Shown here piece after piece: positions 35,151-64,000 of a stretch of 64,000 bases of DNA. Numbering within the stretch: the stretch's first letter is position 1; each line of letters opens with the position of its first letter. The notes under the pieces are model-generated. The model was not told where the DNA came from. It did no database searches and worked only from the letters and a program-made list of their open reading frames with translations. Source of the stretch: an uncultured Acidobacteriota bacterium (lineage in GTDB: Bacteria > Acidobacteriota > Thermoanaerobaculia > UBA5066 > Gp7-AA6); the NCBI GenBank assembly GCA_963764715.1, contig CAVXTP010000021.1:160001-224000 (forward strand). The letters run 5' to 3'. The position numbers were made by a program, and so were the translations under genes.

Positions 35151-35710
35151 GGCGTTCCATTCGTGGGAGCCGCGCCCGGCGGGGGCGGGAACTTGGCGAG
35201 CAGCGCGTCGATCTCGTGATGGATCTCGCGGCCGGCGGCATCGGGATTTTCCCCCTCGAGCCGGGTGATCGAGCCGCGCCAGATGAGCTTCTTGTCCGCC
35301 GTGCGGAAGTCGATCGTGATGGCCCGCGACTTCTCGTACATCATGCTTTCGTACCCCGTCAGCCAGGCGTAGTTGGGGTCCTTGACCTCGTCGCTCACGC
35401 GCGTGTCGCCGGTCAGAAACGCGACGAGCAGCGAGGCGCGTGCGGGGTCGACCTTCTGGTAGCCCTTTCCCGCGAGGCTCGCGTCGACGGCGGCGTGGAC
35501 GTGCTGCGAGATGAACTCGCCGTCGATGATCGAGTCGCCGTGGGGCGGCGGGTAGCCCGGCCCGACCCACCAGGCGTAGGTCTTTGCCGCCGCGAAGTCC
35601 GCCGTCTTGTCCCAGGCGAACTGGGGCACCGGGTGCGTTCCGCGGCACGCGGCGACGCCGATCACGCCGGCGACGAGAAGCAAGGACGGGCGTCGCAAGG
35701 TCCGGGTCAT
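35147..35710 (-). CDS. DUF4136-like lipoprotein
   Basis: Lipobox VAAC; KTYAW, LIWRG, FPP; paralog of the adjacent gene; AAGGAG RBS. Confidence 0.75.
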
Positions 35711-35771
35711 GTTCGCTCCTTCGAGGGTGCGGGGACATTACACCATGCGCGGGATCGCATACTCTTGCCCC

Positions 35772-37258: not shown

Positions 37259-39916
37259 ATGAGCCTTGCCGCGGGAACACGCCTGGGGCCCTACGAGATC
37301 GTGGCGCCGATCGGGGCGGGCGGGATGGGGGAGGTTTACCGGGCGAAGGACACGCGTCTGGACCGGCAGGTGGCGGTGAAGGTTTTGTCGTCGCACCTGT
37401 CGGCGAGCGAGGAGGTGCGTCAGCGGTTCGAGCGGGAGGCGAAGACGATTTCGCAGTTCTCGCACCCGCACATCTGCTCGCTGTACGACGTGGGTCGGGA
37501 GGGCGAGACCGACTACCTGGTGATGGAGCTCCTCGAGGGCGAGAGCCTTGCCGACCGGCTGGGCAAGGGCGCGCTTCCGACGGAGCAGGTCCTGCGGTAC
37601 GGGATCGAGATCGCGGACGCGCTCGACAAGGCGCACCGCCAGGGGATCGTGCACCGGGACCTGAAGCCCGGCAACATCATGCTGACGAAGACGGGCGTGA
37701 AGCTGCTGGACTTCGGTTTGGCGAAGCCGCTGACGGCGGCGGGGGCGCGGCCCGTCTCGGGCGCCTCGGTCCTCGCGACGGAAGCCCAGGTGAGCCAGCC
37801 GCTGACCGAGCGCGGGACGGTGCTGGGGACGTTCCAGTACATGGCGCCCGAGCAGCTCGAGGGCGGCGAAGCGGACGGCCGGTCGGACATTTTCGCGTTC
37901 GGCGCGGTGCTGTACGAGATGGCGACGGGCAAGAAGGCGTTCACGGGCAAGAGCCAGGCGTCGCTGATCGGATCGATCCTGCGGGACGAGCCGCCGTCGA
38001 TCTCGGAGGCGGCGCCGATGATCCCGCCGGCGCTGAACCGCGTGGTGAAGACGTGCCTGGCGAAGGACCCGGAGGACCGGTTCCAGACGGCGCACGACGC
38101 GAAGCTGCAGCTCGAGTGGATCGCGGAGGGCGGCTCGCAGGCGGGGCTGCCGGCGCCGGTCGTCGCGCGGCGAAAGAACCGCGAGAAGCTCGCGTGGGCC
38201 GTCGCCGCGGTCGCCCTGCTCGCCGCCGGCCTCGCCACCTGGGGCTGGTTCCGCCGCGCGCCGGTCCCGCCCCTGATGGCACGTTTCGACATCATGTCTC
38301 CGGAGGATCTCGTGGCGATCGACATGCCGCGCGTTTCTCCCGACGGACGCACCATCGCGTTGAACGCGACGGACGCCGCCGGAAGAACCCGAATCTGGAT
38401 CCGGCCGTTGAACTCCCTGACGGCGCATGCGCTGGAGGGGACCGAGGGAACGACTCGTCCCTTCTGGTCGCCGGACTCGCGCTTTATCGCTTTTTTCTCC
38501 GAGGGCAAGCTGAAGAAGGTGGACACCTCCGGCGGTCCACCGCAGAAGATCTGCGACGCGCCGACCGGCGCCGACGGCTCGTGGAGCTCGGAGGGCGTAA
38601 TTCTCTTCGACGGCGTCACCGGGGATCCCATCCAGCGGGTTGCCGCCACGGGCGGAACCCCGGTCGTCGAGGTCAAGCCCGACCCGGCGCGCAAAGAAAC
38701 CCAGGTCGCCTGGCCGGAGTTCCTGCCCGACGGCCGCCACTACATCTATCTGGCGAGCGGCCAGAAACCGGAAGACAACCTCTACCGCATCGGCTCGCTC
38801 GGCTCGAAGGAATCGACACCGATGGCGTCCGCACAGACGCTTCTCAGCTATGCGGCGCCCGGATACATCCTCTTCGTGCGTGACAAGACTCTCGTCGCGC
38901 AGCGCTTCGACCTGAAGAAGCTCAAGACGATCGGCGAACCGGCCCCCGTGGCCGAGAAGATCGGCACGGATGCCGTGGGTCTCGCTCGCTTTTCGGTGTC
39001 CCGCAACGGCGTCCTCGCCTACCGCACGGGCGATTCCGGAAATCGACTGCTCTGGATGGATCGCGGCGGGAAGGAGCTCGAGACGGCCGGCGCTCCCGGC
39101 GACTACGGCAATCCGGCGTTGTCCCGCGCGGGAGACCGACTCGCGTTCAACGCCTCGGATCCGCGCAGCGGGAAGTTCGACATCTGGGTCCGGGACCTCG
39201 CGCGCGGCGTGAACTCGCGCTTCACGTTCGCCGCCGGCGTCAACATCTGCCCACTGTGGTCTCCGGACGGCTCCCGAATCGTCTTCACTTCGGAAAAGGA
39301 GGGCGCATCCAGTCTCCTCGAGAAGGCGTCCACCGGCCAGGGAGAGGAGAAATCGCTCCTCAAGAGCACCGACGGACGCGTCCTCGCCACCGATTGGTCG
39401 CGCGACGGGAAGTACATCGCCTATTCGCATCGGGGAAAGGAGGGCTGGGACATCTTCGTTATGCCGACCTCGGGCGACCGCAAGCCGATTCCCGTGGTTC
39501 AAACTCCGTTCAACGACCTGAATGCCACGTTCTCGCCCGACGGCCGATTCATCGCGTACCAGTCGAACGAGTCCGGGCGCGGCGAGGTCTACGTCCAGAC
39601 CTTTCCGGATCCCGGGGGCAAATGGCAGATCTCGACGGCGGGCGGCTTCGACGCGTCGTGGCGGGCGGACGGCAAGGAGATCTTCTTCCGCGCTCCCGAC
39701 CAGAAGCTGATGGCGGTGGACGTCCAGACCGCCGGGAACTTTCAGGCCGGCATTCCGCACCCGCTGTTCCTGGGTCGCATTCCCCCCGGCGCATCGCGCA
39801 ATCGGTACGCGCCGGCGGCCGACGGGCAACGCTTCCTCTACATCGCGCCGCTCGGGCGCGAGTCGATGACTCCGACGACGGTGATCCTCAACTGGTTCGA
39901 AGGGCTGGAGCACTGA
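37259..39916 (+). CDS. Ser/Thr receptor kinase with PD40 beta-propeller (array gene 1)
   Basis: Intact kinase motifs; RRKNREK + TM helix; SPDG blades; ends VILNWF. Confidence 0.93.
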   Translation: MSLAAGTRLGPYEIVAPIGAGGMGEVYRAKDTRLDRQVAVKVLSSHLSASEEVRQRFEREAKTISQFSHPHICSLYDVGREGETDYLVMELLEGESLADRLGKGALPTEQVLRYGIEIADALDKAHRQGIVHRDLKPGNIMLTKTGVKLLDFGLAKPLTAAGARPVSGASVLATEAQVSQPLTERGTVLGTFQYMAPEQLEGGEADGRSDIFAFGAVLYEMATGKKAFTGKSQASLIGSILRDEPPSISEAAPMIPPALNRVVKTCLAKDPEDRFQTAHDAKLQLEWIAEGGSQAGLPAPVVARRKNREKLAWAVAAVALLAAGLATWGWFRRAPVPPLMARFDIMSPEDLVAIDMPRVSPDGRTIALNATDAAGRTRIWIRPLNSLTAHALEGTEGTTRPFWSPDSRFIAFFSEGKLKKVDTSGGPPQKICDAPTGADGSWSSEGVILFDGVTGDPIQRVAATGGTPVVEVKPDPARKETQVAWPEFLPDGRHYIYLASGQKPEDNLYRIGSLGSKESTPMASAQTLLSYAAPGYILFVRDKTLVAQRFDLKKLKTIGEPAPVAEKIGTDAVGLARFSVSRNGVLAYRTGDSGNRLLWMDRGGKELETAGAPGDYGNPALSRAGDRLAFNASDPRSGKFDIWVRDLARGVNSRFTFAAGVNICPLWSPDGSRIVFTSEKEGASSLLEKASTGQGEEKSLLKSTDGRVLATDWSRDGKYIAYSHRGKEGWDIFVMPTSGDRKPIPVVQTPFNDLNATFSPDGRFIAYQSNESGRGEVYVQTFPDPGGKWQISTAGGFDASWRADGKEIFFRAPDQKLMAVDVQTAGNFQAGIPHPLFLGRIPPGASRNRYAPAADGQRFLYIAPLGRESMTPTTVILNWFEGLEH

Positions 39917-39917
39917 G

Positions 39918-42578
39918 ATGAGTCTTTCCGCCGGGGACGACGGCTGGGTCCGTACGAGATCGTCGCGCCGATCGGGGCGGGCGGGATGGGCGAGGTGTAC
40001 CGGGCGAAGGACACGCGTCTGGACCGGCAGGTGGCGGTGAAGGTGCTGTCGTCGCACCTGTCGGCGAGCGAGGAGGTGCGTCAGCGGTTCGAGCGGGAGG
40101 CGAAGACGATCTCGCAGTTCTCGCACCCGCACATCTGCTCGCTGTACGACGTGGGTCGGGAGGGCGAGACCGACTACCTGGTGATGGAGCTCCTCGAGGG
40201 CGAGAGCCTCGCCGACCGGCTGGGCAAGGGCGCGCTTCCGACGGAGCAGGTCCTGCGGTACGGGATCGAGATCGCGGACGCGCTCGACAAGGCGCACCGG
40301 CAGGGGATCGTGCACCGGGACCTGAAGCCCGGCAACATCATGCTGACGAAGACGGGCGTGAAGCTGCTCGACTTCGGGCTGGCCAAGCCGCTGACGGCGG
40401 CGGGCGCGCGGCCGGTGTCGGGGGCGTCGGTTCTGGCGACGGAAGCGCAGGTCAGCCAGCCTCTGACGGAGCGGGGAACCGTGCTCGGGACGTTCCAGTA
40501 CATGGCGCCCGAGCAGCTCGAAGGAGGGGAGGCCGACGGGCGTTCGGACATTTTCGCCTTCGGCGCGGTGCTTGTACGAGATGGCGACGGGGAAGAAGGC
40601 GTTCACGGGTAAGAGCCAGGCGTCGCTGATCGGGTCGATCCTGCGGGACGAACCGCCGTCGATCTCGGAGGCGGCGCCGATGATCCCGCCGGCGCTGAAC
40701 CGCGTGGTGAAGACGTGCCTGGCGAAGGACCCGGAAGACCGGTTCCAGACGGCGCACGACGCGAAGCTCCAACTCGAGTGGATCGCGGAAGGCGGCTCGC
40801 AGGTGGGCCTGCCCGCACCCGTCGTCGCGCGGCGCAAGAATCGCGAGAAGCTCGCGTGGGCCGTGGCGGCGGTGGCGCTCCTCGCCGCGGGGCTCGCGAC
40901 GTTCGGCTACCTGCGCCGGGCGCCGAAGCCGCCGCGGATCACGCGCTTCGAAATCGGGATTCCGCCGAACGTGATTGCGATCGACACGCCGCGGATCTCG
41001 CCCGACGGGCAGATCCTGGCCTTCAATGCCACGGATGCCGAAGGCAAGACGCGGATCTGGATCCGCCCCTTGAGCGCCCTCGCGGCCCAGCCGCTCGCGG
41101 GGACGGAGGGAACCACTCGCCCCTTCTGGTCGCCCGACAGCCGTTTCCTCGGCTTCTTCGCCAACGGCAAGCTCATGAAGGTCGACGTGGGGGGCGGTCC
41201 GCCGACCAAGATCTGCGATGCGCCGACCGGATCCGACGGAACCTGGAGCCCCGAAGGAGTGATCCTGTACGACGGCACGGGCGCCGACCCGATCCACCGC
41301 GTCCCGGCCGCGGGAGGCGCGCCAACGGTGGCCGTCAAGGCCGACGCGGCGCGCAAGGAGACGCAGATCGGCTGGCCCGAGTTTCTTCCCGACGGCCGCC
41401 ACTTCATGTACATGTGCATCAACGCAAAGGTGGACGACAGCGCCTATCGCATCGGCTCGCTCGATTCGAGCGAAACGAAGGCGTTTGCGCCGGCCCAGAC
41501 GATGCTCACCTACGCGCCGCCGGGTTACCTGCTCTTCGTGCGCGACCGGACCCTCGTTGCCCAGCGCTTCGATGCCAAGGCGATCAAGACGCTGAGCGAG
41601 CCCGTGCCGCTCGCGGAGCAGATCGGGACCGACGCCGTCGGCCTCGCACGCTTCTCCGTCTCGCGCGACGGCATCCTCGCCTATCGAACCGGGGAATCGG
41701 GGAACCGGCTGGTCTGGGTCGACCGGTCCGGCAAGGAGCTCGAAACGCTCGGTGATCCGGGCGAGTACGGCGAGCCGGACCTGTCGCCCACCGGCGACCG
41801 TCTCGCCTTCGACCTGGCTGACCTCCGAGCCAACAAGACCGACCTCTGGATCCGCGACCTCGGCCGCGGGGTCAACTCGCGCTTCACGTTCTCCCCGGGC
41901 AACGCCTTCTCGCCGCTGTTTTCTCCCCGCGGCGACACGATCGTCTTTGCGTCGGATCGGGACGGCGCGCCCGGACTCTACGAGAAGGCGGCCAACGGGC
42001 AGGGTGACGAAAAGCTGATCTCCAAGATGGAAGAGCTCGTCATCCCCGTCAGCTTCTCGCCCGACGGATCCATCCTCGCCTACCAGGTCCGCAACCCGAA
42101 GACGGGCTGGGACATCGTGATGCTGCCGATGACCGGCGACCGGAAGCCGGTGACTTTCGCCGGTGCGTCGTTCAACGAGAACGCGCCTCGCTTTTCTCCC
42201 GACGGGCGCTTCCTCGCGTACGTGTCGAACGAATCGGGTCGCGCCGAGATCTACGCGCAGAGCTATCCCGGCCCGGGCGGCAAGTGGCAGATTTCGAATA
42301 CCGGCGGCTCGGATCCCCACTGGCGCGCCGACGGCAAGGAGCTCTTCTACCGGAGCCCCGACCAGAAGCTGATGGCCGTCGAGATCCGGGGCGGGGCCTC
42401 GCTCGAGGCCGGCATTCCGCGGCCGCTCTTCGTGGGTCGCGTCCACATCGGAAACGCCCGCAACAAGGTCCTGCCGGCGGGCGACGGCCAGCGCTTCCTC
42501 TTCGTCGCGCCGCTCGGGCGCGACGCCATGAACCCGACGACGGTCGTGCTGAACTGGTTCGCCGGACTGGGGCGTTAG
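39918..42578 (+). pseudogene. Frameshifted Ser/Thr receptor kinase with beta-propeller (array gene 2); real pseudogene or sequencing indels
   Basis: ATG AGT CTT TCC GCC GGG g ACG a CGG CTG GGT CCG TAC (+2 nt near 39936/39940) and GTG CtTG TAC (+1 near 40572) relative to paralogs; split into ORFs 39986-40612 and 40572-42578. Confidence 0.8.
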
Positions 42579-42582
42579 TTCG

Positions 42583-45237
42583 ATGACGCTCGCCGCTGGA
42601 GCGAAGCTCGGGCCTTACGAGGTCCTCGCGCCGATCGGGGCGGGGGGGATGGGGGAGGTCTACAAGGCGAAGGACACGCGGCTGGGGCGGGACGTCGCGG
42701 TCAAGGTCCTTCCCGCGCACATGTCGGCCAACGCCGAGCTGCGGCAGCGGCTGGAGCGCGAGGCGAAGACGATCTCGTCGCTCTCGCATCCCCACATCTG
42801 CATGCTCCACGACGTCGGGCACCAGGACGGCACGGACTACCTCGTCATGGAGTTCCTGGAGGGGGAAACGCTGGCGGACCGGCTGGCGAAGGGCGCTCTT
42901 CCGATGGATCAGGCCTTGAAGTTCGGAGTCGAGATCGCCGGCGCGCTCGACGCGGCGCACCGGAGCGGGATCATTCACCGGGACCTGAAGCCCGGCAACA
43001 TCATGCTGACGAAGTCGGGCGTGAAGCTGCTCGACTTCGGGCTCGCGAAGCTCGCGGCTCCCGACAAGAGCGCCGCTTCCCAGGCGACGAGCCTGCCGAC
43101 GGCCATGCAGGAGAGCCAGCCCCTCACGTCGCGGGGGACGATCCTCGGGACGTTCCAGTACATGGCGCCGGAGCAGCTCGAAGGCAGGGAAGCGGACGCG
43201 CGGAGCGACATCTTCGCCTTCGGCTGCGTGCTCTACGAGATGCTCTCGGGGCAGAAGGCCTTCACGGGCAAGAGCCAGGCCTCGCTGATCGGGTCGATCA
43301 TGAACACCGACCCGCCGCCGATCTCGTCGATCCAGCCGATGATCCCGCCGGCGCTGGACCGGGTCGTCAAGGGCTGCCTCGCGAAGGAGCCGGAGCACCG
43401 CTGGTCGACGGCGCACGACGTGATGCTGCAGCTGCAGTGGGTCGCCGAGGGCGGGTCGGCCGCCGGGCTTCCGGCGCCCGTCGCCGCGCGCCGCAAGAGT
43501 CGCGAGAGGCTGGCCTGGGGCGTCGCGGCCGCGCTGCTGCTCGCCGCCGCGGCGCTCGCCTACGGCTTCGTCCGCCGGGCGCCGAAGCCGCCCCGCGTGG
43601 TGCGGTTCGAAGTCGCGATTCCTCCCGACATCACGGCCATCGATGCTCCCAAGATCTCGCCGGACGGCAAGTTGCTGGCGTTCAACGCCACCGACAAGGA
43701 CGGGAAGACTCGGATCTGGCTCCGGCCGCTCAATGCGCTGACGGCGCAGCCGCTGGCGGGGACCGAGGGGACACGGCGGCCGTTCTGGTCCCCCGACAGC
43801 CGGTTTCTCGCCTTCGTCGCCGACGGGAAGCTGAAGAAAGTGGACGTCACCGGCGGCCCGCCCACCAAGATCTGCGATGCGCCGACCGGAGTCGACGGGA
43901 CCTGGAGCCCCGAAGGCGTCATCCTCTTCGACGGAACGGGTCCGGATCCGATCCATCGCGTCAGCGCCGCCGGCGGAACGGCGGTCGTGGCGGTCAAGCC
44001 GGATCCGGCCCGCAAGGATTTCCAGATCGGCTGGCCGGAGTTCATGCCCGACGGGCGCCACTTCATTTACCTCGCCATCAATCAGAAGCCCGAGGACAGC
44101 GGGTATCGCATCGCTTCGATCGACTCGTCCGAGACGAAGCCGTTCGCTCCGGCCCAGACGATGCTCGCGTATGCGCCCCAGGGATATCTCCTCTTCGTCC
44201 GGGACAAGACGCTCGTGGCCCAGCCCTTCGATGCGAAGGCGATGAAGACCACCGGGGAGCCCGTGCCTCTGGCCGAACAGATCGGAACCGACGCGGTGGG
44301 GCTCGCGCGCTTCTCGGTGTCGCGCGACGGCGTGCTCGCCTACCGCACCGGGGAATCCGGGAACCGGATGATCTGGCTCGATCGATCGGGCAAGGAGATC
44401 GATACGGTTGTCTCGAAAGGAGACAGCCAGGACCCGCAGTTCTCGCCCGCCGGCGACCAGCTCGCCTACGACCTCCTCGACGAACGGAGCGCAAAGTCCG
44501 ACATCTGGATTCGCGACCTGGCGAGAGGCGTGAGCTCCCGTTTCACGTTCGACTCCGTGAACGCCTACACCCCCGTGTGGACCCCCCGCGGAGACGCGAT
44601 CGTCTACGCATCGGAGCGCGAGGGCGCGCCGGGGTTGTACGAGAAGTCGATGCTCGGCCAGGGCGAGGAGAAACTTCTGCTCAAGGCCGAAGCGCTGACG
44701 GTTCCTGCCGACATCGCCCCCGATGGCTCGGCGCTGCTCTACAACGTCCGCGATCCGAAAACGAGCTGGAACATCATGGTCCTGCCGAGGACCGGCGAGG
44801 CCAAACCCGTCGCATTCCGAGCGACGCCGTTCAACGAGGGCAACGCCAACTTCTCACCGGACGGAAAGTTCATCTCGTACATCTCGAACGAGTCGGGCCG
44901 CAACGAGGTCTATGTGCAGAGCTATCCCGGCCCCGGGCGAACCTGGCAGGTCTCGACCTCCGGCGGCACCGACGCGCACTGGCGCAAGGACGGCAAGGAG
45001 CTCTACTACCGCAGCCTCGACCAGAAGCTGATGGCGGTGGACGTGCAGACGGGCGAGACGTTCCAGGCCGGGATTCCCAGGGCGCTGTTCCAGGCGCAGA
45101 TCGCCACGGGAGCCGCGAGCACGAAGTACCTTCCGGACCGGTCGGGGCAGAAGTTCCTGTTCGTCGCGCCGATGGGACGCGATGCCCTCACGCCCACGAC
45201 GGTCGTGCTGAACTGGTTTGCGGCGCTCGGTAAGTAA
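42583..45237 (+). CDS. Ser/Thr receptor kinase with PD40 beta-propeller (array gene 3)
   Basis: Intact kinase, TM helix, propeller; 4 nt from the previous stop. Confidence 0.93.
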   Translation: MTLAAGAKLGPYEVLAPIGAGGMGEVYKAKDTRLGRDVAVKVLPAHMSANAELRQRLEREAKTISSLSHPHICMLHDVGHQDGTDYLVMEFLEGETLADRLAKGALPMDQALKFGVEIAGALDAAHRSGIIHRDLKPGNIMLTKSGVKLLDFGLAKLAAPDKSAASQATSLPTAMQESQPLTSRGTILGTFQYMAPEQLEGREADARSDIFAFGCVLYEMLSGQKAFTGKSQASLIGSIMNTDPPPISSIQPMIPPALDRVVKGCLAKEPEHRWSTAHDVMLQLQWVAEGGSAAGLPAPVAARRKSRERLAWGVAAALLLAAAALAYGFVRRAPKPPRVVRFEVAIPPDITAIDAPKISPDGKLLAFNATDKDGKTRIWLRPLNALTAQPLAGTEGTRRPFWSPDSRFLAFVADGKLKKVDVTGGPPTKICDAPTGVDGTWSPEGVILFDGTGPDPIHRVSAAGGTAVVAVKPDPARKDFQIGWPEFMPDGRHFIYLAINQKPEDSGYRIASIDSSETKPFAPAQTMLAYAPQGYLLFVRDKTLVAQPFDAKAMKTTGEPVPLAEQIGTDAVGLARFSVSRDGVLAYRTGESGNRMIWLDRSGKEIDTVVSKGDSQDPQFSPAGDQLAYDLLDERSAKSDIWIRDLARGVSSRFTFDSVNAYTPVWTPRGDAIVYASEREGAPGLYEKSMLGQGEEKLLLKAEALTVPADIAPDGSALLYNVRDPKTSWNIMVLPRTGEAKPVAFRATPFNEGNANFSPDGKFISYISNESGRNEVYVQSYPGPGRTWQVSTSGGTDAHWRKDGKELYYRSLDQKLMAVDVQTGETFQAGIPRALFQAQIATGAASTKYLPDRSGQKFLFVAPMGRDALTPTTVVLNWFAALGK

Positions 45238-45258
45238 GACGGTTTTGAAGGAGTCTCG

Positions 45259-47916: not shown

Positions 47917-47935
47917 CCCGCGTCCCGACCACGTT

Positions 47936-47969
47936 TGATGGTAATCATGATGGTAGAATCAATGCCATG
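47936..47969 (+). promoter_or_regulatory. vapBC promoter/operator: extended -10 (TGgTAGAAT), direct repeat TGATGGTA x2, imperfect palindrome ATGGTA-N7-TGCCAT
   Basis: AT-rich patch; TAGAAT at 47954-47959, 7 nt before ATG 47967; repeats at 47936-47943 and 47948-47955. Confidence 0.6.
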
Positions 47970-48239
47970 AGAACAACCATCGACCGTGCCGGAAGGCTCG
48001 TGCTGCCCAAGCCGATCCGCGACGCCGCCGGCCTCGTCCCGGGCGCGGAGCTCGAAATTCGCCTCGCCGACGGACGGATCGAGATCGAGCCCGCGCCGCT
48101 CGAGGTCCGGCTCGTCAAGCGCGGCTCGCTGACGGTCGCCGTTGCGCGCAAGCGCGTCCCGCCGCTGACCGCGGAGGCCGTGCGAAAGACGCTCGACGGC
48201 CTCCGCCGCCGGGGCGCCGACATGACCCGAGTCGAGTGA
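47967..48239 (+). CDS. vapB: AbrB/MazE/SpoVT-family antitoxin (VapB)
   Basis: MRTTIDRAGRLVLPKPIR AbrB fold; recalled resemblance to M. tuberculosis VapB40; GTGA overlap with the PIN toxin. Confidence 0.88.
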   Translation: MRTTIDRAGRLVLPKPIRDAAGLVPGAELEIRLADGRIEIEPAPLEVRLVKRGSLTVAVARKRVPPLTAEAVRKTLDGLRRRGADMTRVE

Positions 48240-48676
48240 ACTCGTACCTCCTCGACACGAGCTGCCTGGTCGCCGCGGTTTGTGAATGGCATCGCCATCA
48301 CGAGGCGACGCGCAAGGAGATCGAACGCCGTGCTGCAGCCGGTGAGACGCCGACGCTGGCGGCCCACGCGCTCGCCGAAGCCTATTCGGTCCTGACGCGC
48401 CTGCCCGATCCCCACCGCCTGCGTCCGGACGACGCGCTCGCCGTGTTGGAGGCCAACTGGAGCGAGACCCGGCTCGTCGCGCTCGGACCTGCGGACTACC
48501 GGTCGACGCTTCGCCGCTGCCGCGACGCCGGGATCGGCGGCGGTGCCGTCTACGACGCCCTGATCGCGTCGTGCGCCCGGAAGGCGCGCGTGGCGACTCT
48601 CGTCACCTGGGATGTCGGCGCCTTCGAGCGCTTTCTGGACGATGAGCCGGCCGTGCGGACACCGGAGGCCCGATGA
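48236..48676 (+). CDS. vapC: PIN-domain toxin (VapC)
   Basis: LLDTS, E in AEAYSVLTRLP, YDALI, TWD acidic PIN residues. Confidence 0.9.
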   Translation: MNSYLLDTSCLVAAVCEWHRHHEATRKEIERRAAAGETPTLAAHALAEAYSVLTRLPDPHRLRPDDALAVLEANWSETRLVALGPADYRSTLRRCRDAGIGGGAVYDALIASCARKARVATLVTWDVGAFERFLDDEPAVRTPEAR

Positions 48677-48766
48677 CGCTGACTCGGACTCGAGGCGGCC
48701 CGCTGCGCGGGCCGACGGACGAGAGAGGGAAAGTCGCTTTGTGAAACATCTCCCGAGAAATCTCAC

Positions 48767-53985: not shown

Positions 53986-56618
53986 CCCTCGCCTCGGGAA
54001 CGAAGCTCGGCCCGTACGAGATCCTCTCGCCGCTCGGCGCCGGAGGGATGGGAGAGGTATACCGGGCGCGGGACGCCAAGCTCAACCGCGAGGTCGCCAT
54101 CAAGGTGCTGCCGGAGGCGGTGGCGGAGGACGCGGAGCGTCTGGCGCGATTCCAGCGCGAGGCGCAGGTCCTGGCGTCGCTCAATCACCCGCACATCGCG
54201 GCGATCTACGGGCTGGAGAAGGTCGGCAACGTCGAGGCGCTGGTGCTGGAGCTCGTCGAGGGAGAGACGCTCGCCGAGCGTATCGGGGCCGGGCCCATTC
54301 CGGTCGACGAGGCCCTGGCGATCGCTCGCCAGATCGCGGACGCGCTCGAGGCCGCGCACGAGAAGGGGATCGTGCACCGGGACCTGAAGCCGGCCAACGT
54401 GAAGGTGACGCCGGACGGCAAGGTCAAGGTGCTCGACTTCGGCCTCGCGAAGGCGCTGTCGGGTGACGCCTCGTCCCCCGACCAGACGCACTCGCCGACA
54501 CTCACCGCGGCGGCCACGCAGGCCGGCGTCGTCATCGGGACGGCGGCGTACATGTCGCCCGAGCAGGCGAGGGGCAAGGCCGTCGACAAGCGCGCCGACA
54601 TCTGGGCCTTCGGCGCCGTGCTCTACGAAATGCTCGCGGGCCAGAAGGCGTTCGAGGGCGACACGGTCTCGGACACGCTGGCCGCCGTGCTGCGCGCCGA
54701 CATCGACTGGTCGCGCCTGCCGTCGTCAACGCCTCCGGCCGTGCAGAACGTCCTGCGCCGGTGCCTCGATCGCGACCCCAAGCACCGCCTGCGCGACATC
54801 GGAGACGCGCGCATCGCTCTCGAGGACCTCGCGTCGAGCAGCAGCGGCGCCGCCGCGCCTGCGGAATCGCCGGCTGCCCCCGTGCGTCGCCCGGCATGGC
54901 CCTGGCTCGCGGCGGTGATCGCGGCCCTGCTTGCCGGGACGGCTGCCGGCCGATTCGCGCTGGCTCCCCGCCGCTCCTCGGCGCGGCCCGTCCGCTTCGA
55001 GATCAGCGCGGGCACCGTCTCGTCGGCCGCAATTTCTCCGGACGGGCGGCAACTCGCGATCGCTTCGCGCGGCAAGCTCTGGGTCCGCGATCTCGCCCGG
55101 CTCGAAATCCGTGAGATCGAGGGGACCGACGGCGCCGTCCGGCCTTTCTGGTCGCCGGACAGCCGGACGATCGCCTTCGGCGCCCACGGGAAGCTGTGGA
55201 AGGTGCTGGCCGAAGCGGGAGCCCCGTCCGCCATCTGCGAGCTGGCGGGCGGCCTCTGGGACGACGATGCCGGCGGAGCGTGGCTGTCGGACGGCACGAT
55301 CGTCTTCAGCAACGGCAACGCCGGACTCTGGCAGGTGTCTTCGCAGGGCGGCGATCCGATCGAGGTGCTCAAGGTCGACCCGAAGCAGGAGCTCGACTTT
55401 CATACGGCGAGCGCCCTTCCCGACGGCCGCAGCGTGGTCTACGTGATCCACCGCGCCGCCGAAGGCGCCGGCGCCGACACGCTGGGGATCTGGTCCGGCG
55501 GAAAGGCGCGGCGGCTGTTCGAGGCGAAGGGCCAGTCCCTGGACAATCCGGTTTACTCGCCGAGCGGCCATGTCCTCTTCGAGCGCAGCCCCACCAATGC
55601 CGGCGTGTGGGCGCTCCCGTTTTCGTTGAAAAGGCTCGCGGCGACGGGTGAGGCGTTTCTGGTGTCGTCGGGCGCTCGGGGCCCGAGCGTGGGCTCGGAC
55701 GGAACCCTGGTCGTCCTTCCGCCTCGCCGCCGCCGTCCGATCAACCTGGCCTGGGCCGACCGGGACGGAAAGATCCTGGGCCGCGTCGACGAGCCCCGCC
55801 TCCGCGGCCTTTCCGCGATCTCGCCGGACGGCGATCGAATCGCCGCTACGGAGGTCAGCGACGGGAAGCGGGACATCTGGCTCTACGATCTCAAACGCAA
55901 CACGCGCATCCGCCTCACGAACGACGGCGGGGCCGAATCGCCGGTCTGGCTGAAGGATGGCCGGAGCATTCTGTACGAGAGCCGCGCCGCATCCGCGGGC
56001 TCGATCCGGCGGGTGCTGGCCGACGGCTCGGGGCGCGCGGAGGACATCGTTCCGGGTGCGGGACGGCCCGGAGTTTCTGCGCGCGGCGACCTCTTTTTCT
56101 ACGCGACGCGCAGCGGGGACGGATGGCGTCTCTGGTATCGCTCCCTCGCGGACGGAAAAGAAAAGCCCGCTCTTTTCCTGGACCAGGCTTTCTACTCGAT
56201 CGACGCCGTCCCATCGCCGGACGGCCGGTTCGTCGCGTACGAGGCATGGTCCGGGCCCGGCGCGTCGGAAATCTTCCTGCGGCGCTTCCCTCCGTCCGAG
56301 GGCGTCTGGCAGGTATCCTCGAACGGCGGAACCTCGCCGCGCTGGTCGTCCGATGGCCGGCTCTTTTTCGCGCAGGGCGCCGACATCCTGGAGGTGCCGC
56401 TGACCACAGACCCGGACGTCCGGCTCGGCGCCCCGACGCGGCTCTTCCGGCGGACGTCGCCGGGAGGCGGCAACGTCCCGCCCGCATTCGACGTCTCGCC
56501 CGACGGAAAGCGCTTTCTGATCTACGAGCCCGCCGGCGACATGACGGACGAGCGAATCGTGGTCGCCCTGGACTGGTTCGCGGAGCTACGCCGCGGCACC
56601 GGCGAGCCTCCAAAGTAG
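53982..56618 (+). CDS. Ser/Thr receptor kinase with PD40 beta-propeller (array gene 7)
   Basis: Start reassigned to the ATGA overlap ([13 protein letters not shown]) within ORF 53214-56618. Confidence 0.92.
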
Positions 56619-56628
56619 GACGAAACAC

Positions 56629-59316
56629 GTGACGCTCGCCGCCGGAACCAAGCTCGGGCCCTACGAGATTCTGTCGCCGCTCGGCGCCGGTGGGATGGGG
56701 GAGGTGTACCGGGCGCGCGATGCCAAGCTCAACCGCGAGGTCGCGATCAAGGTCCTGCCGGAAGCGGTGGCGGAGGACGCGGAGCGTCTGGCGCGGTTCC
56801 AGCGGGAGGCTCAGGTCCTGGCGTCGCTCAATCACCCGCACATCGCGGCGATCTACGGGCTGGAGAAGGCCGGCAACGTCGAGGCGCTGGTGCTCGAGCT
56901 CGTCGAAGGCGAAACGCTCGCGGAACGGATCGCCGCGGGGCCCATCCCTCTGGACGAGGCTCTGCCGATCGCTCGCCAGATCGCCGACGCTCTGGAAGCG
57001 GCGCACGAGAAGGGGATCGTGCACCGGGATCTGAAGCCGGCCAACGTGAAGATCACGCCGCAGGGCAAGGTCAAGGTGCTGGACTTCGGACTGGCGAAGG
57101 CGCTGACGGGGGACCGGTCATCTCCGGACCAGACGCATTCGCCGACGCTGACCGCGGCGGCGACGCAGGCGGGGGTCGTGGTCGGGACGGCGGCGTACAT
57201 GTCGCCGGAGCAGGCGCGCGGCAAGTCGGTGGACAAGCGGGCGGACATCTGGGCGTTCGGGGCGGTCCTGTTCGAAATGCTCGCGGGGCGCAAGGCGTTC
57301 GAGGGCGAGACGGTGTCGGACACGCTCGCCGCGGTCCTGAAGACGGATCCGGACTGGAGCGCGCTGCCACGCGAGACCCCGGCCACGGTCCGGCGTGCGC
57401 TTCGGCGCTGCCTCGACCGGGACGCGAAGACTCGCTTCCACGACATCGCGGACGCGCGCATCCAGATGGACGAGGCAGTCGAGCCGGCCGCGGCGAGCGC
57501 CGCGCCGGCGGCTGCGGCGCGGCCCCGCAGCCGGCGGCTGGAATGGGCCGTCGCCGCGCTTCTCGCGGCCGTCGGAGCGGTCGGCTGGTGGCGCGCCCTG
57601 TCGGCGCCGAAGCCGGCGCCCGCGGCCCGCACCGCCTTCGCCGTGGCGATCCCAGAGGGAGACGTCGTCGCCTACGACGACACGCCGATCCTCTCCCTGT
57701 CCCGCGACGGCCGGCGGCTGGTGTATGCCGCCGAGCGGGCCGGCGCTCGGGCCCTTTTCCTGCGGACGCTCGGCGAGATCGAGCCCCGACCGCTCGAAGG
57801 CACGACCGGCGCGCGGAGTCCCTTCTTTTCGCCCGACGGCCAGTGGGTCGGGTTCTTTGCCGAAGGGGGCAAGCTGAAGAGGTCGCCGGTCTCGGGCGGG
57901 CCGCCACAGTTGATCTGCGAGGGCGTGAACGCGCAGCGCGGCGCGGTCTGGGCCGACGACGACACGATCATTCTGACCGCGGACTACGCGGCGGGGCTCT
58001 CCCGGGTTTCCGCCAGGGGAGGAAAGATCGAGCCGCTGACGAAAGTCGACGCCAAGAAGGGCGAGCGCACGCACCGGTGGCCCGACCTTCTGCCGGACGG
58101 CCAGAGCGTTCTCTTCACGATCGGTTCGGACAAGAGCCCCGGCAACTACGACGACGCGAAGATCGCGTTGTTCGACCGCAAGACCGGGCGCGTCCGCATC
58201 CTGCTCGAGGGCGGAAGTATGGCGCGCTATTGCCCGCCGGGCTACCTGCTCTACGTCCGTTCGAGGTCCCTGCTCGCGGTGCCCTTCGACGTGGCGCGCC
58301 GTGAGGTCGTGGGGGAGCCCTTTCCGGTGCCGGAGAAGATCGCGGGCGATCCTTCGAGCGGGATCGGCTACTTCGCGGTGGGAGGCGACGGATCGCTTGC
58401 CTTCGTTCCCGGCACGGCCGTGGCGGCCGAGAGCAAGCTGGTCCTGACGGACCGCAAGGGTGTGGCCACCGAGCTGCCGCTGCCGCCGCGCCAGTACCGG
58501 TTCCCGCGCTTCTCGCCCGACGGCACGAAGATCGCGTTTTCGATCGGAAGCGGCCGGGGTGCCGACGACGAGGTCTGGATCTACCAGCTCTCGGGCGGCG
58601 GCCTGACGCGTCTGACTTTTTCGAGCGGCAATTTCTGCCCGATCTGGTCCGGAGACGGCCGGCGCCTCGCCTACGTGTCGGCCCGCCCCACCAACGAGGG
58701 AATCTACGCGCGGCCCGCCGACGGCAGCGGGGCGGAAGAGTGGCTCTACGGCGATTTCACGGCCCGACTCCCCTCGGATTGGTCGCTCGACGGCAAGACG
58801 CTGCTCTTCACGCACCCCTCCAACCAGGTCTGGGTCGCGGCGTTGAAGGGCGCCGCGACTCGGTCGGGGGCGCCGGGAAACGACTCCCACATGATCGAGG
58901 CGAGTGCGTACGGTGGAGTCTTCTCTCCGGACGACCGCTGGATCGCCTACGCGGCTTCCGTCTCCGGTGCGGTCTCCGAGCTGTTCGTCCAGGCCGCCGA
59001 GGGAGCGGCCGCCAAGTGGCAGCTCACGACCGACGGCGGAGGCCAGCCGGTCTGGGCGGGGAACGAAATCTTCTTCATTCACGCTCCCTCGCAGGTCCGA
59101 GTGATGTCGGTCCAGACGCAGCCCGTGTTCCAGGCGGGCAAGGCGGAGACGCTCTTCGAGGGCCAGTTCGAGCTGCGCACCGCGCCGCTGCGCAACTACG
59201 ACGTCTCCCGCGACGGAAAGCAGTTCGTCTTCGTCCGGGGCGGCTCGGACCTCGGGGCGCGGGAGGTGGACGTCGTGCTCCACTGGGGACTGGAACTCGG
59301 AGGTCGAAACAGATGA
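56629..59316 (+). CDS. Ser/Thr receptor kinase with PD40 beta-propeller (array gene 8)
   Basis: GTG start, AGGA RBS; intact kinase; propeller. Confidence 0.93.
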   Translation: MTLAAGTKLGPYEILSPLGAGGMGEVYRARDAKLNREVAIKVLPEAVAEDAERLARFQREAQVLASLNHPHIAAIYGLEKAGNVEALVLELVEGETLAERIAAGPIPLDEALPIARQIADALEAAHEKGIVHRDLKPANVKITPQGKVKVLDFGLAKALTGDRSSPDQTHSPTLTAAATQAGVVVGTAAYMSPEQARGKSVDKRADIWAFGAVLFEMLAGRKAFEGETVSDTLAAVLKTDPDWSALPRETPATVRRALRRCLDRDAKTRFHDIADARIQMDEAVEPAAASAAPAAAARPRSRRLEWAVAALLAAVGAVGWWRALSAPKPAPAARTAFAVAIPEGDVVAYDDTPILSLSRDGRRLVYAAERAGARALFLRTLGEIEPRPLEGTTGARSPFFSPDGQWVGFFAEGGKLKRSPVSGGPPQLICEGVNAQRGAVWADDDTIILTADYAAGLSRVSARGGKIEPLTKVDAKKGERTHRWPDLLPDGQSVLFTIGSDKSPGNYDDAKIALFDRKTGRVRILLEGGSMARYCPPGYLLYVRSRSLLAVPFDVARREVVGEPFPVPEKIAGDPSSGIGYFAVGGDGSLAFVPGTAVAAESKLVLTDRKGVATELPLPPRQYRFPRFSPDGTKIAFSIGSGRGADDEVWIYQLSGGGLTRLTFSSGNFCPIWSGDGRRLAYVSARPTNEGIYARPADGSGAEEWLYGDFTARLPSDWSLDGKTLLFTHPSNQVWVAALKGAATRSGAPGNDSHMIEASAYGGVFSPDDRWIAYAASVSGAVSELFVQAAEGAAAKWQLTTDGGGQPVWAGNEIFFIHAPSQVRVMSVQTQPVFQAGKAETLFEGQFELRTAPLRNYDVSRDGKQFVFVRGGSDLGAREVDVVLHWGLELGGRNR

Positions 59317-62006
59317 CGCTCGCGGCCGGGACCAAGCTGGGGCCCTACGAGATCCTCGCGCCGATCGGGGCCGGGGGGATGGGCGAGGTTTACAGGGCGC
59401 GGGACGAGCGACTGGAGCGGACGGTCGCGGTCAAGGTCCTGCCGCCGCACCTGTCGTCGAGTCCGGAGCTGCGGCAGCGTTTCGAGCGCGAGGCCAGGAC
59501 GATCTCGCAGATCTCCCACCCGCACATCTGCGCGCTCTACGACGTCAACCGCGAGGGCGAGACCGAATACCTCGTCATGGAGTACCTCGAGGGCGAGACG
59601 ATGGCGGACCGCCTGAGCAAGGGGCCGCTTCCCGCAGAGCATCTTCTCCGTTACGGGATCGAGATCGCCGACGCGCTCGACAAGGCGCACCGGCAGGGGA
59701 TCGTGCACCGGGATCTCAAACCGGGCAACGTGATGCTGACGAAGTCGGGGGTCAAGCTCCTCGACTTCGGCCTCGCGAAGTTCCAGGCGCCCGGGCGCGA
59801 CGTGTCGTCGGGCGTTTCGCGCCTGGCAACGGAGATGCAGGCGAGCCAGCCGCTGACGGAGCGGGGCACCGTCCTCGGCACCTTCCAGTACATGGCGCCC
59901 GAGCAGCTCGAGGGCAAGGACGCCGACGCGCGGAGCGACATCTTCTCCTTCGGCGCCCTGCTCTACGAGATGGCGACGGGCAAGAAGGCGTTCTCGGGCT
60001 CGTCGCAGGCTTCCCTCATCGGCGCCATCCTGCGCGACGATCCGCCGGCGATCTCGGAGATCTCGCCGATGATCCCGCCGGCCCTGAACCGCGTCGTCAA
60101 GACGTGTCTCGCCAAGGACCCGGAGGACCGCTTCCAGACGGCGCACGACGCGAAGCTTCAGCTCCAGTGGGTCGCCGAGGGCGGGTCACAGGCCGGGCTG
60201 CCGGCGCCCGTCGTCGCGCGCCGCAAGAACCGGGAGAAGCTCGCCTGGGCGGTCGCGGCGGCGGCGATCGTCGCCGCGGGCCTCGCGACGTTCGGCTACT
60301 TGCGCCGGGCGCCGCGGGCGGCGACGCGCGTCGGCGCGTTCGTGCTGCCGGCCGAGAAGTCGGAGCTCCAGTTGTCCGATGCCGGCTGCGGCTCGCTCAC
60401 GGTGTCGCCGGACGGCCGCCTGCTCACGTTCGCCGCGAAGGATGCCGACGGCAAGACCCTCTTGTGGCTGCGTCCCACCGGCGAGCTCGCGGCGAAGCCG
60501 ATCCCCGGGACGCATGGAGCGACGTTTCCGTTCTGGTCGCCCGACAGCCGGTTTCTCGCGTTCTTCGCCGACGGCAAGCTCCAGAAGGTGGACATTTCCG
60601 GGGCGCCCCCGCTGCCCGTGTGCGACGTGGCGAACGGGCGCAGCGGATCGTGGAACCGGGAAGGGATCATTCTCTTCTCGCCGGACACGACGACGGGCCT
60701 CGTTCGGGTCCCCGCGGCGGGCGGCACCCCAAAGCCGGCGACCACCCTCGATACCGCTCGCGGCGAGACGACGCACCGCTGGGCGACGTTTCTGCCGGAC
60801 GGCCGCCACTTTCTCTACATGGCGGGCGCGCATTCGGCCGGCACGAAGAGCGATTCGAACGCGGTCTACGTCGGGGCGCTCGACTCGAGCGAGAAGACCC
60901 TCCTCCTGCAGGCCCGCTCCAACGTCGTCTACGCCTCGGGCTACCTGCTCTACGTGCGCGAGCGGATCCTGCTCGCGCAGCGCTTCGACCCGGCCGCCCG
61001 GCGTCTCGTGGGGGAAGCCGTTCCGGTGACCGAGGGCGTGCAGTACGACCCGGCGTTTTTTCGGGGCGTATTCGCGGCTTCGGAAGACGGCGTCCTCGTG
61101 TACGCCCTCGGCTCGGCGGGTTCGGCCGCGACCCGGCTCACATGGATGGATCGCGCGGGAAAGCCGATCGGCGAGCCCCTCGGAGAGCCGGCGGAGTACC
61201 AGGGCCTTTCGCTCGCGCCGGACGGAAAGCGCATCGCCGCCTGGATCAACGATCCGTCGACGGGCGCCGGATCGATCTGGCTCATCGACAGCCGCGGAGT
61301 CCGCACCCGCTTCACGTTCGGCGAACTCTCGGAGTCGCCCGTATGGTCGCCGGACGGGAGCCGCATCGCGTTCCAGAGGCTGGACAAGAAGGGGGCCGAC
61401 GAGATCCGCGTGAAGGCCGTGAGCGGCTCCGGCCAGGAAGACGTCGTGTTTCATGGGGAGAGGCCGGCGACCCCGCTCGACTGGTCTCCGGACGGCGCGT
61501 ACCTCGCCGTGCAGATGCACCAGCGCAGCGGTGCAACGACGGGCGAAGACATCTGGATGATCCCGCTCTCCGGCGACCGGAAGCCGTTCCCGTTTCTCGC
61601 GGGCGAGTTCAACGAGGCCGGCGCGTCCTTTTCGCAGGACGGCAAGTGGGTGAGTTTCACGTCAAACGAGTCGGGGCGGGACGAGCTGTACGTCGTTCCG
61701 TTTCCGGGGCCCGGCGGCAAGTACCAGATCTCCGCGGGCGGCTCCCAGGGAGGAGCCTTCTTCAAGGGCGGCCGGGAAATTCTCTACGGAAGTCCGGAAA
61801 ACGACCTTGTCTCCGTGGACGTCCACGCCGCTCCCGCGGGCCTCGAGGTCGGCCCGCCGAAAAAGCTCTTCAAGGTCCCTTCAGCTTCCGCCCTCACGAT
61901 CACGCCGGACGGCGAGAGGTTCCTCGTGGCCCTGCTGCCGCAGGGGTCCGCCGCGCCGCGTGTGGCACTCGTGACCAACTGGACGGCGGGGTTCGAGAAG
62001 AAGTAA
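59313..62006 (+). CDS. Ser/Thr receptor kinase with PD40 beta-propeller (array gene 9)
   Basis: Start reassigned to the ATGA overlap with GGAGG RBS ([13 protein letters not shown]) within ORF 58740-62006. Confidence 0.92.
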
Positions 62007-62019
62007 GACGGCTCAGCAA

Positions 62020-64000
62020 ATGACGCTCGCCGCCGGAACCAAGCTCGGCCCCTACGAGATCCTGGCGCCCCTCGGCGCGGGCGGGATGGGGGAGGTCTAC
62101 AAAGCGCGCGATACGCGGCTCGAGCGGATGGTGGCGGTGAAAGTGCTGCCGGAGCGGCTGGCGGAGGACGCCGACGCGCTGGCGCGGTTCGGGCGCGAGG
62201 CGAAGGCCGTCGCGGCGCTGTCGCACCCGAACATCCTCGCGATCCACGACTTCGGGCACGAGGGCAGCGTCGCTTACGCCGTGTCCGAGCTTCTCGAAGG
62301 GGAGACGCTGCGCGAAGCGCTGGCGTCCGGACCGCTGTCTTCCCGCAAGGCGAGGGAGTACGGAGTGCAGATCGCGCTGGGCCTCGCCGCGGCGCACGAG
62401 AAGGGGATCGTCCATCGGGACCTGAAGCCCGACAACATCTTCGTGACGCGGGACGAGCATCTGAAGATCCTCGACTTCGGGCTCGCGAAGCCGGGCGCGG
62501 GGCCCGCGACGGCTCGCGACGAGACGCAGTCCCCGACGGTGTCGGGCTACACGGAGCCGGGCAAGGTCATGGGGACCGTCGGCTACATGTCGCCGGAGCA
62601 GGTCCGGGGCATGGCGGTCGACCACCGGTCCGACATTTTTTCTTTCGGGGCGGTGCTGTACGAGATGCTGACGGGAAGCCGCGCGTTTCAGCGGGAAACC
62701 GCGGCCGAGACGATGACGGCGATCCTGAAGGAGGACCCGCGGGAGCCGTCGTCGGTGGGGGCGGACGCGGCGGCGCTCGTCCCGGTGCTGCGGCACTGCC
62801 TGGAGAAGAAACCCGAGAAGCGGTTCCAGTCGGCGAGGGACCTCGCGTTCGCCCTGGAGACGGCGGCCGGCACAACGGGCTCGGCCGCCGTCGCGGCCGT
62901 GCCGCCGCCGCCGCTCTCGGCTGCGCTCGGGAGGTGGCTCGGTGTCGCGGCCCTCGTCGCCGCCGCGGCCGCCGCCGGTTATTTCTTCCGTCCCGGCCGC
63001 GCCGCATCGCCAGAGCCGGACTGGAGCGAGGCGACGATCGCGCCGCTGACGACCGATCCCGGCTACGAAGGGGAGCCGACGTTCTCTCCCGACGGGCAGA
63101 CGATCGCCTACGTCTCCGACCGCGACGGGAACTTCGAGATCTACCTGCAGCAGGTCGCGGGCGGCCCGGCGCTCAATCTCACGAACAACCCGGCCGCGGA
63201 CATCCAGCCCGCGATTTCTCCCGACGGCCGCGAGATCGCCTTCGTCTCGAATCGTTCGGGCGGCACGGACATCATGCACGCGGCCCCCAAGCTGCCCGTC
63301 GTCGGGGGCGACATCTGGGTGATGCCCGCCCTCGGGGGCCCGGCGCGCCGGATCGTTGAGAACGGGAATTTCCCGTCCTGGACACCGGACGGCGCGAACC
63401 TCGTCTACGTTCACGGCACGTTTCGGAATGTGCGAATCGCGATCGTGCCCGCGGCGGGCGGGGAGAGCCGCGACCTGCCGATCGAGGAGCCGTTCGTTCT
63501 CCGCTATTTCTTTCCCAGCATCTCGGAGGACGGAAAGTGGCTCCTCTACCAGAACGGCCACCAGGTCGAGGTCGTCCCCGCGGGAGGCGGAAAGCCGAAG
63601 GAACTCGCCCGGGGCGAGGCGCCCGCGTGGTGGCCCGGTTCGACGAGCGTCCTTTTCACCAGCAACACGCCCGGCAAGGGCCGGAGCCTCTGGAGGGCGC
63701 CGTTCTCGCTCGCGCGCGGCGAACTCTCGGGGCGGCCGCGGCCGCTGACCTTCGGGCGCGGCGCCGACCTCGGAGCGAAGGTCTCGCGGGACGGAAAAAC
63801 GATCGCATTCTCCGCCGTGGAGGAGAGCCTCAACCTCGAGGAGATTCCTTTCGATGCGGAGGCCGGTCGCGTGACCGGCCCGTCCCGGGAATTGACCGCC
63901 GGAAGCAACCGGGTGGGGTTCTTCGATGTCTCGCCGGATGGGAAGGCGGTCGTCTTCGAGGCGGAGCGGGGCGACCGGTCGCATCTCTGGCGTATCGATC
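62020..64000 (+). CDS. Ser/Thr receptor kinase with TolB-type beta-propeller (array gene 10, truncated by window end)
   Basis: Manual translation [27 protein letters not shown]...HRDLKPDN...DFGLAK...YMSPE, then TM helix and [18 protein letters not shown]; no stop seen before 64000. Confidence 0.9.

Follow-up and report, generated by a model that had tools for sequence, protein, structure and literature searches.

What is a tandem row of ten receptor-type serine/threonine (Ser/Thr) kinase genes good for in an uncultured acidobacterium, and which process has shaped it? The row lies in a window of 64,000 nucleotides (nt), the whole stretch of DNA that was analyzed, which corresponds to G000:C21:160001-224000 of a 4.36 Mb assembly (26 contigs, 70% GC). 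G-codes denote the genome assemblies compared, G000 being the source genome; C-codes are contigs, L-codes extracted loci, and k1 to k10 the genes of the array. The initial annotation had suggested a diversified receptor repertoire, and this is what we find: the kinases are conserved, the ectodomains variable, and gene content and order differ between relatives. The explanation that we regard as probable is that an interval of ∼50 kb around the array serves as a store of exchangeable single-pass receptor Ser/Thr kinases, which is re-assorted by recombination and samples the chemical surroundings.

The array comprises exactly ten co-oriented kinase-helix-PD40 genes on the plus strand (37259-64692). 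The gene coordinates bear out the earlier description as ten same-strand, head-to-tail paralogues of ∼2.65 kb. Equally as described, the intergenic gaps measure −4 to 21 nt, with gene overlaps at 51424, 53982 and 59313; the only wider gap, of 850 nt, lies between k4 and k5. Following the array beyond the window, we found that it ends at ten, with the end of k10 at 64692. An AstE/AspA-like gene follows directly at 64721 and a single TPR kinase further on at 68526. Together with four kinases at 20764-34578, 15 co-oriented kinases fill ∼50 kb, and the array is the densest part of this interval, which extends from position 20764 to about 70800. The four upstream genes had been counted as kinases of the same kind, which is correct for three with PD40 sensors but not for the gene at 20764, which carries TPR repeats. 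Pfam recognizes PD40 in all ten genes, in k2 within the C-terminal frame, and Pkinase in the nine unbroken copies. The whole G000 genome yields 75 Pkinase matches, counting split genes, and 31 of its 68 kinase starts sit in co-oriented runs, the longest of which contain ten (here) and seven genes (C1). When 68 kinase genes were placed at random (n = 2000), co-oriented runs never exceeded three, so the run of ten is far beyond chance. Further kinase rows of G000 are located at C1 36836-55097 (seven genes) and C23 21982-40323 (six genes).

A row of similar genes might also be produced by an assembler that joins dispersed paralogues through their near-identical kinase ends. The G000 assembly does contain indel errors: k2 has its reading frame broken by one inserted base at each of three sites (near 39932, 39939 and 40573), and other kinase genes, on other contigs, are split as well. 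The k2 insertions are most likely consensus (assembly) errors, because both haplotype contigs of the close relative G033 lack all three, and of the short-read contigs a near-identical one of run X1 is free of the first two and one of X5 is free of the third. Moreover, k1 and k2 have long near-identical stretches in common, the N-terminal frame of k2 being 100% identical to k1. However, the longest exact match between array copies is only 98 nt, the gene order k1-k2-k3-k4 recurs in G033, and synteny of the locus extends over 12 independent assemblies, which speaks against a concatenation of dispersed paralogues. The k1/k2 junction is also bridged by a short-read contig with just 33 letters on the k1 side; as such joints have short sides and stem from mixed metagenomes, they were left unused. 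Mis-assembly had been named from the outset as the outcome that would undo the proposal; copy comparison, relatives and short-read contigs gave no sign of it, and this reading is largely refuted and extremely improbable. In G033 two versions of the same interval with differing kinase alleles are present on separate contigs (C1 and C2), which probably represent two strains in one bin.

The N-terminal part of each protein is an RD-type kinase whose activation segment is long and rich in Thr. PF00069 scores 169-177 bits (cut-off 31.7) in all nine unbroken copies, all of which carry the G-loop, catalytic Lys, HRD, DFG and APE motifs, and by domain and motifs the copies are predicted to be Hanks-type Ser/Thr kinases. 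Motifs intact in every copy had been claimed; this holds for the nine unbroken copies, but k2 is split over several frames. All ten copies possess one Ala-rich hydrophobic helix near residue 300-330, with a 19-residue hydropathy peak of 1.5-2.0 at residues 301-312 in 10/10 cases; the peak is at most 1.3 in the sensors and at most 0.82 at the N-termini (nine unbroken copies), indicating no N-terminal signal. Because a signal peptide is lacking and the kinase needs the cytoplasm, we infer a cytoplasmic kinase and periplasmic propellers. The kinases fall into three groups (k1/k2/k9/k3/k4, k7/k8 and k5/k6/k10) with amino acid (aa) identities of 61-100% within and 45-55% between groups. Across the array the kinase halves are 45-100% identical and the ectodomains 23-69%, which agrees with the initial description of conserved kinases with variable ectodomains.

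The PD40 region that forms the ectodomain is 510-555 residues long. The ectodomains of k3 and k6, modelled with AlphaFold2 (predicted local distance difference test, pLDDT, 89.8 and 92.3), are all-beta with about twelve blades, and structure searches align ∼230-260 residues at once to six-bladed propellers. Residues 251-527 of k3 match the TolB-like propeller 2ojh (Z 27.6, root-mean-square deviation (rmsd) 2.7, 257 aligned), as does k6 (Z 23.1, rmsd 2.8, 234 aligned); the sensor of PknD (1rwi) is matched by k3 with Z 19.1, rmsd 3.1 and 236 aligned residues and by k6 with Z 20.9. The PkwA propeller 5yzv is matched at E 4e-14. Twelve blades and alignments of one propeller length imply two propellers per ectodomain; both ectodomains are thus modelled as two six-bladed propellers, one of them closed by the C-terminus, instead of the single large propeller assumed at first. 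The structure searches with k3 and k6 returned no low-rmsd match to both propellers in one solved chain. Foldseek gave double-propeller matches at low template-modelling (TM) score only, and the ESM Atlas contains PD40/Tricorn_N/DPPIV_N clusters from Acidobacteriota and Gemmatimonadota without function. In structure and in sequence, the sensors are matched best by TolB; membership in the TolB family itself was rejected, as TIGR02800 scores of 94.7 (k3), 28.8 (k6) and 148 bits (k10) against a cut-off of 343 indicate likeness of fold only. Two kinase-propeller genes apparently without a membrane helix, at C23 24686-27229 of G000 and near 1305828 of G029, probably encode cytoplasmic versions.

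Is this repertoire a fixed property of the lineage? The kinase-PD40 family occurs in 31/31 genomes searched (genus and order). At greater distance, the double-propeller profile matches 44 of the 101 genomes of the phylum, and a Pkinase match is found in 56 of 61 genomes of the class; the unpublished assembly G041 enters both tallies as one row and is used nowhere else. We mapped the syntenic interval in 12 other assemblies (G006, G012, G033 and G036 being cut by a contig or fetch end) and obtained 11-21 kinases per genome, or 176 loci in 13 regions including G000. The kinases are co-oriented within every one of these regions and the content differs each time. Genes outside the interval keep their order among relatives; non-kinase genes inside it keep their order in the closest relatives and are rearranged in more distant ones. 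A comparison of array content between relatives had been proposed in the initial annotation: both content and order turned out to differ. At 70, 75 and 80% nt identity the 176 loci contain 60, 81 and 107 sensor types without saturation, of which 33, 47 and 71, respectively, are confined to one genome. The sensors of k5, k6 and k7 each have a match of at least 70% nt identity in one of the 12 regions, a different region each time, and G013 additionally has partial or broken k5 and k6 matches. A row of at least 13 kinases is found in G027, which belongs to another family of the order. Between close species, genes have been gained, lost and replaced. In L079 (G032, about 947700-953250) the place of k10 is taken by a kinase with four tandem segments behind it that resemble a TPR-type sensor.

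The two halves of the genes carry different histories. The DNA of k1 and k2 is 87-99% identical up to the end of the helix and ∼70% beyond. The k1 kinase half matches the k2-position gene of G032, and the k1 sensor half is related to a gene between k3 and k4 in G032 and G017 whose kinase is of the k3/k4 type; k1 is therefore chimeric. Compared with G033, the k3 kinase is 98-100% identical at the aa level and the sensor 73-76%, with a synonymous divergence (dS) of 0.89 that exceeds all 14 flanking genes. Against G032 and G013 the same sensor is 95-96% identical, with dS values of 0.12 and 0.11 that lie below all 32 and 19 flanking genes, respectively. The k3 sensor half has very probably been exchanged recently between species and is the clearest case of a swap.

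Separate kinase and propeller trees, as called for in the initial annotation, confirm that the histories conflict. The whole-family trees contain 113 of 133 full-length proteins, the non-PD40 ones and one duplicate having been left out, and display near-identical kinases with unrelated sensors (k5 and three C23 genes; k7 and k8). The kinase of k5 is nearest to C23 kinases and the sensor of k6 is of the C1 class. In L057, adjacent genes have kinases that are sisters at support 100 and sensors in different clades. For the k1-k4 clade we kept 47 complete sensors of 77 matches, 34 of them with an unbroken kinase; G017_2432880 was dropped from the tests and the codon model below due to an implausibly long kinase branch. 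In approximately unbiased (AU) tests with 33 genes each half rejects the tree of the other, with log-likelihood differences (ΔlogL) of 940 and 2300. On half the codons the differences are 495 and 1134, compared to 25 and 39 in odd/even controls; one of these controls was borderline (p 0.015), and the other did not reach significance. Given the conflicting half trees and the k3 identities, homologous recombination through the kinase repeats very probably shuffles the sensors.

Specialized diversification systems were considered as well. A diversity-generating retroelement is ruled out by the lack of a reverse transcriptase: PF00078 has no match in G000 (96.8% complete), while the control was positive in 3 of 14 genomes. 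An integron cassette array is likewise ruled out, as neither an attC-like site between the array genes nor an Rfam match was detected; gaps of −4 to 21 nt leave attC no room, and the 25 longest of 28 inverted repeats are all located outside the spaces between array genes. Without reverse transcriptase and attC, ordinary homologous recombination between direct repeats is the simplest mechanism.

In order to understand what drives this turnover we analyzed selection. The ratio of non-synonymous to synonymous substitution rates (dN/dS, omega) of the sensors is 0.14-0.30 in 24/24 pairs; of 25 further pairs, 24 fall within 0.09-0.34 and the one outlier is a non-orthologous pair of 39% identity. The medians of flanking genes are 0.12-0.23. 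A one-ratio model gives omega values of 0.043 (kinase), 0.057 (first propeller) and 0.094 (second propeller). A codon mixture model of the k1-k4 clade (our own implementation, not checked against codeml, applied to one clade and with power lowered by saturation) yielded no site class with omega > 1 in either propeller or the kinase: 2ΔlogL was 0.12 for the first propeller, negative for the second and about 0 for the kinase. Positive selection on the propeller top face, a label that follows the WD40 convention, had been expected; it is rejected at the level of whole domains and was not found at the level of sites. By these ratios, both halves are under purifying selection. Array content identical across relatives combined with purifying selection had been named as evidence against a repertoire; the purifying selection is there, but identical content is not. 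The inner strands and one loop set of the second propeller have a mean omega of 0.135 versus 0.087 elsewhere, which 0/5000 permutations reached, whereas the same contrast in the first propeller is 0.069 versus 0.057 (p 0.064); this high-omega site set was defined after the class means were seen. The variable face of the second propeller is likely a ligand site that differs among paralogues; an arms race driven by point mutations does not fit the omega pattern. In another acidobacterium the expanded kinases show no positive selection either, according to the accessible part of that report (PMC3174227).

Two other functions have to be weighed against these data. The propellers could form a pattern-recognition repertoire that detects phage proteins, surface proteins of competitors or contact with a predator, with sensor exchange resulting from conflict and balancing selection. 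This would suit the open, non-saturating sensor pool, the presence/absence differences between close species, the strong divergence of sensor alleles at a single position (k3, dS 0.89), the toxin-antitoxin pair within the array, and an organization like that of the conflict-driven esaG/tipC arrays as far as the available text of PMC9484751 describes them. However, no site class with omega > 1 was found, sensor dN/dS is similar to that of the flanking genes, the neighbouring genes are metabolic or peptidase genes, and the toxin-antitoxin pair occurs in only 3/12 regions. Membership in the antiphage kinase families PD-T4-6, Stk2, MADS6 and PglW was rejected, as all defence-library matches are confined to the generic kinase domain; those to MADS6 (148-172 bits versus a cut-off of 460) and PglW (65-92 versus 990) stay far below threshold. 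The suggested sensing of non-self, phage or neighbours is therefore not supported by these data, and we consider this function unlikely. Its most far-reaching form is similarly doubtful: a bacterial counterpart of plant pattern-recognition receptor clusters, with an open pool of periplasmic double propellers for phage, competitor or predator molecules that species would exchange as cassettes by recombination at the kinase repeats and that would signal to a few shared transcription factors reading phosphothreonine. Alternatively, the TolB-like propellers could bind self proteins or wall fragments and monitor the state of the envelope, copy-number change being largely a neutral by-product of tandem repeats. 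TolB as best structural and sequence match, purifying selection throughout, and the fact that rows of 1-kb direct repeats recombine whatever their function are in line with such monitors. But the sensors are only 23-69% identical and most variable where the second propeller presumably binds its ligand, and self ligands need neither at least 60 sensor types nor exchange across species, which makes envelope monitoring quite improbable.

Which proteins could receive the signal? ECF sigma factor-kinase pairs of the EcfK/PknS type offer one precedent, which was rejected here since no Sigma70_ECF gene is adjacent to the array. As noted initially, the surroundings lack a sigma factor, FHA or phosphatase gene: ECF, FHA and PP2C genes are absent at the array. 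PF07638 has 13 matches in the genome, none at the array, and the best five adjoin other kinases. Nine FHA genes are present in the genome, five of which combine a winged helix with FHA (Trans_reg_C+FHA); two of these immediately precede a kinase gene, one on C24 (with PD40 by Pfam) and one on C9 (split, with a propeller piece). The winged-helix-FHA genes L099:1988-2641 (C6) and L100:2729-3382 (C22) have equal length and the same first 60 residues, being either a recent duplication or an assembly duplicate. An RsbW-like anti-sigma gene (window coordinates 70820-71320, below the RsbW cut-offs) follows directly behind the last (TPR) kinase and is found in the regions of 8/12 relatives; three regions end before that point and G006 lacks the gene. 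An RsbW-like gene also occurs near the array of G029, which belongs to another family. By guilt by association, the FHA and RsbW-like genes are candidate partners, and the winged-helix-FHA regulators elsewhere in the genome would be the likeliest outputs. Convergence on a shared output, as originally proposed, is unproven: the three kinase groups are only 45-55% identical to each other, and at least three groups suggest a few output channels and not one.

Our favoured explanation of the interval as an exchangeable receptor store then reads as follows. The kinase-plus-helix halves of ∼950 nt very probably act as direct repeats for homologous recombination, which would convert neighbouring kinases, swap the sensor behind a kinase, add or drop whole genes, and admit sensors from other species. 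The second propeller of each receptor would bind, on its channel face, a periplasmic ligand specific to that receptor, such as a peptide, a protein surface or a fragment of a glycan. Binding would lead to autophosphorylation of the Thr-rich activation loop. The most likely recipients of the signal in trans would be winged-helix-FHA regulators, with the RsbW-like partner-switching protein as a further possibility, and few output channels would be used given at least three kinase groups. The repertoire would most likely sample the chemical surroundings of a soil-type cell and be adjusted through the turnover of entire sensors and not through rapid point mutation.

Several observations weigh against this explanation or narrow it. 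A winged-helix-FHA gene occurs in no fetched array region, so that the link to these regulators is indirect. Only 16/176 loci have their nearest kinase neighbour in the same genome (sensors 2/176); homogenization is therefore frequent but not the rule. The dS of flanking non-kinase genes also ranges widely (0.16-0.88), and inter-species recombination is thus not confined to sensors. Many relatives are error-prone assemblies whose frameshifts and truncations inflate the counts of sensor types. Finally, the kinase side of the helix is more basic in five of ten copies, equal in three and less basic in two, and positive-inside counts alone do not settle the topology.

Bacterial Ser/Thr receptor kinases have usually been studied as a few fixed genes, and a modular, re-assorted repertoire much like the receptor-kinase clusters of plants is present here in an abundant, uncultured soil lineage. 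The natural chimeras, with the same kinase and different sensors and vice versa, make the question of PD40 ligands testable and also allow a test of how dozens of kinases share few outputs.

The genes of the interval that lie in or reach into the window are compiled in the following table.

Table 1. Kinase genes of the variable interval and the gene pair between both runs of the array (window coordinates)
Feature	Position	Strand	Remarks
Kinase-helix-TPR gene	20764..23172	+	Start of the variable interval
Kinase-helix-PD40 gene	23189..25855	+	Pfam; same interval
Kinase-helix-PD40 gene	26425..29091	+	Same interval; kinase of k7/k8 group
Kinase-helix-PD40 gene	31900..34578	+	Pfam; same interval
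k1	37259..39916	+	885 aa; kinase-helix-double propeller; chimeric
k2	39918..42578	+	Same architecture; three one-base insertions
k3	42583..45237	+	884 aa; modelled sensor has two TolB-like propellers of six blades each
k4	45259..47916	+	885 aa; versus k3: kinase 90% identical, sensor 63%
AbrB/MazE-like antitoxin gene	47967..48239	+	ATG read at 47967
PIN-domain VapC-like toxin gene	48236..48676	+	4-nt overlap with antitoxin gene
k5	48767..51427	+	886 aa; kinase nearest to array kinases of contig C23, sensor of another class
k6	51424..53985	+	853 aa; second sensor class (C1-array-like), modelled double propeller
k7	53982..56618	+	878 aa; versus k8: kinase 87% identical, sensor 32%
k8	56629..59316	+	895 aa; receptor kinase
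k9	59313..62006	+	897 aa; versus k1: kinase 82% identical, sensor 43%
k10	62020..64692	+	890 aa; third sensor class; last array gene; ends 692 bases past the window

The 850-nt gap between both runs contains a VapBC-like pair (AbrB/MazE-like antitoxin, PIN/VapC-like toxin), which among the 12 relatives' regions is present only in G032, G013 and G017; an AT-richer stretch lies upstream of the pair (47967-48676), and G013 has a second PIN-gene piece after a truncated k5-like gene. Between 34500 and 54000 no promoter-like sites were counted (0.7 in shuffled sequences) and eight terminator-like sites (9.3 in shuffled sequences), neither count exceeding chance. Directly upstream of k1 (34581-37136) lie a tandem pair of DUF4136 genes and a gene for a cytochrome P450, the latter also being found in 6/12 relatives' regions. 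A reverse-layout kinase at 121-2253 on the minus strand (membrane sensor, HAMP, C-terminal kinase) has a conserved position in relatives. The ispG (GcpE) gene, a normally essential isoprenoid gene, lies at 29104-30357 on the opposite strand inside the variable interval. As the regions of all 12 relatives contain it there too, large deletions may be restricted by this gene.

How does the array compare with known systems? PknH-EmbR is a pair of a kinase and a winged-helix-FHA regulator; five Trans_reg_C+FHA genes, two of them directly upstream of kinase genes, resemble such pairs, whereas no winged-helix-FHA gene lies at this array and the phosphorylation is putative. PknD of Mycobacterium tuberculosis is encoded by a single-copy gene and has an NHL-type propeller. 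With it the array proteins share a Hanks kinase, one membrane helix and a six-bladed beta-propeller ectodomain, but they bear two PD40/TolB-type propellers (510-555 aa) in place of one 254-residue propeller, and dozens of paralogues in recombining arrays replace the single gene. Plant immune receptor-like-kinase (RLK) clusters show positive selection on ectodomain sites; here none was detected in the k1-k4 clade, and an immune role of the array is unlikely. PknD phosphorylates an anti-anti-sigma homologue, as stated in the accessible portion of PMC1847690, and an RsbW-like gene closes the interval described here. Kinases joined to PD40/WD40 repeats are among the commonest prokaryotic kinase architectures in the available text of PMC2877116, which does not mention arrays, module exchange or Acidobacteria. 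Candidatus Solibacter usitatus, from the same phylum, likewise has an expanded kinase family without positive selection; TolB/WD40 sensors and tandem kinase arrays do not appear in the consulted part of that account (PMC3174227).

The initial likening to plant RLK clusters is apt as regards organization: the highly variable tandem cluster OAK of Arabidopsis has diverging ligand-binding ectodomains (PMC3136440, excerpt), as do the hypervariable tandem genes described here. In contrast to what that excerpt covers, the bacterial array has an unrelated ectodomain, an independent origin, translational coupling and exchange across species. In the tandem arrays of Staphylococcus aureus esaG and streptococcal tipC conserved blocks recombine, which leads to chimeras, expansion and loss (PMC9484751, sections available to us); conserved blocks, chimeric genes, and gain and loss are all found here. 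However, esaG and tipC encode toxin-neutralizing proteins, whereas the array encodes signalling receptors of 2.65 kb whose conserved block is the whole catalytic module, and no cognate polymorphic toxin was found among the scanned neighbour genes. The literature covered, mostly open papers in their main text, contained no description of such bacterial kinase arrays. The parts are known, a PknD-like receptor and an esaG-like recombining array, and their union here in a recombining receptor-kinase repertoire is well supported.

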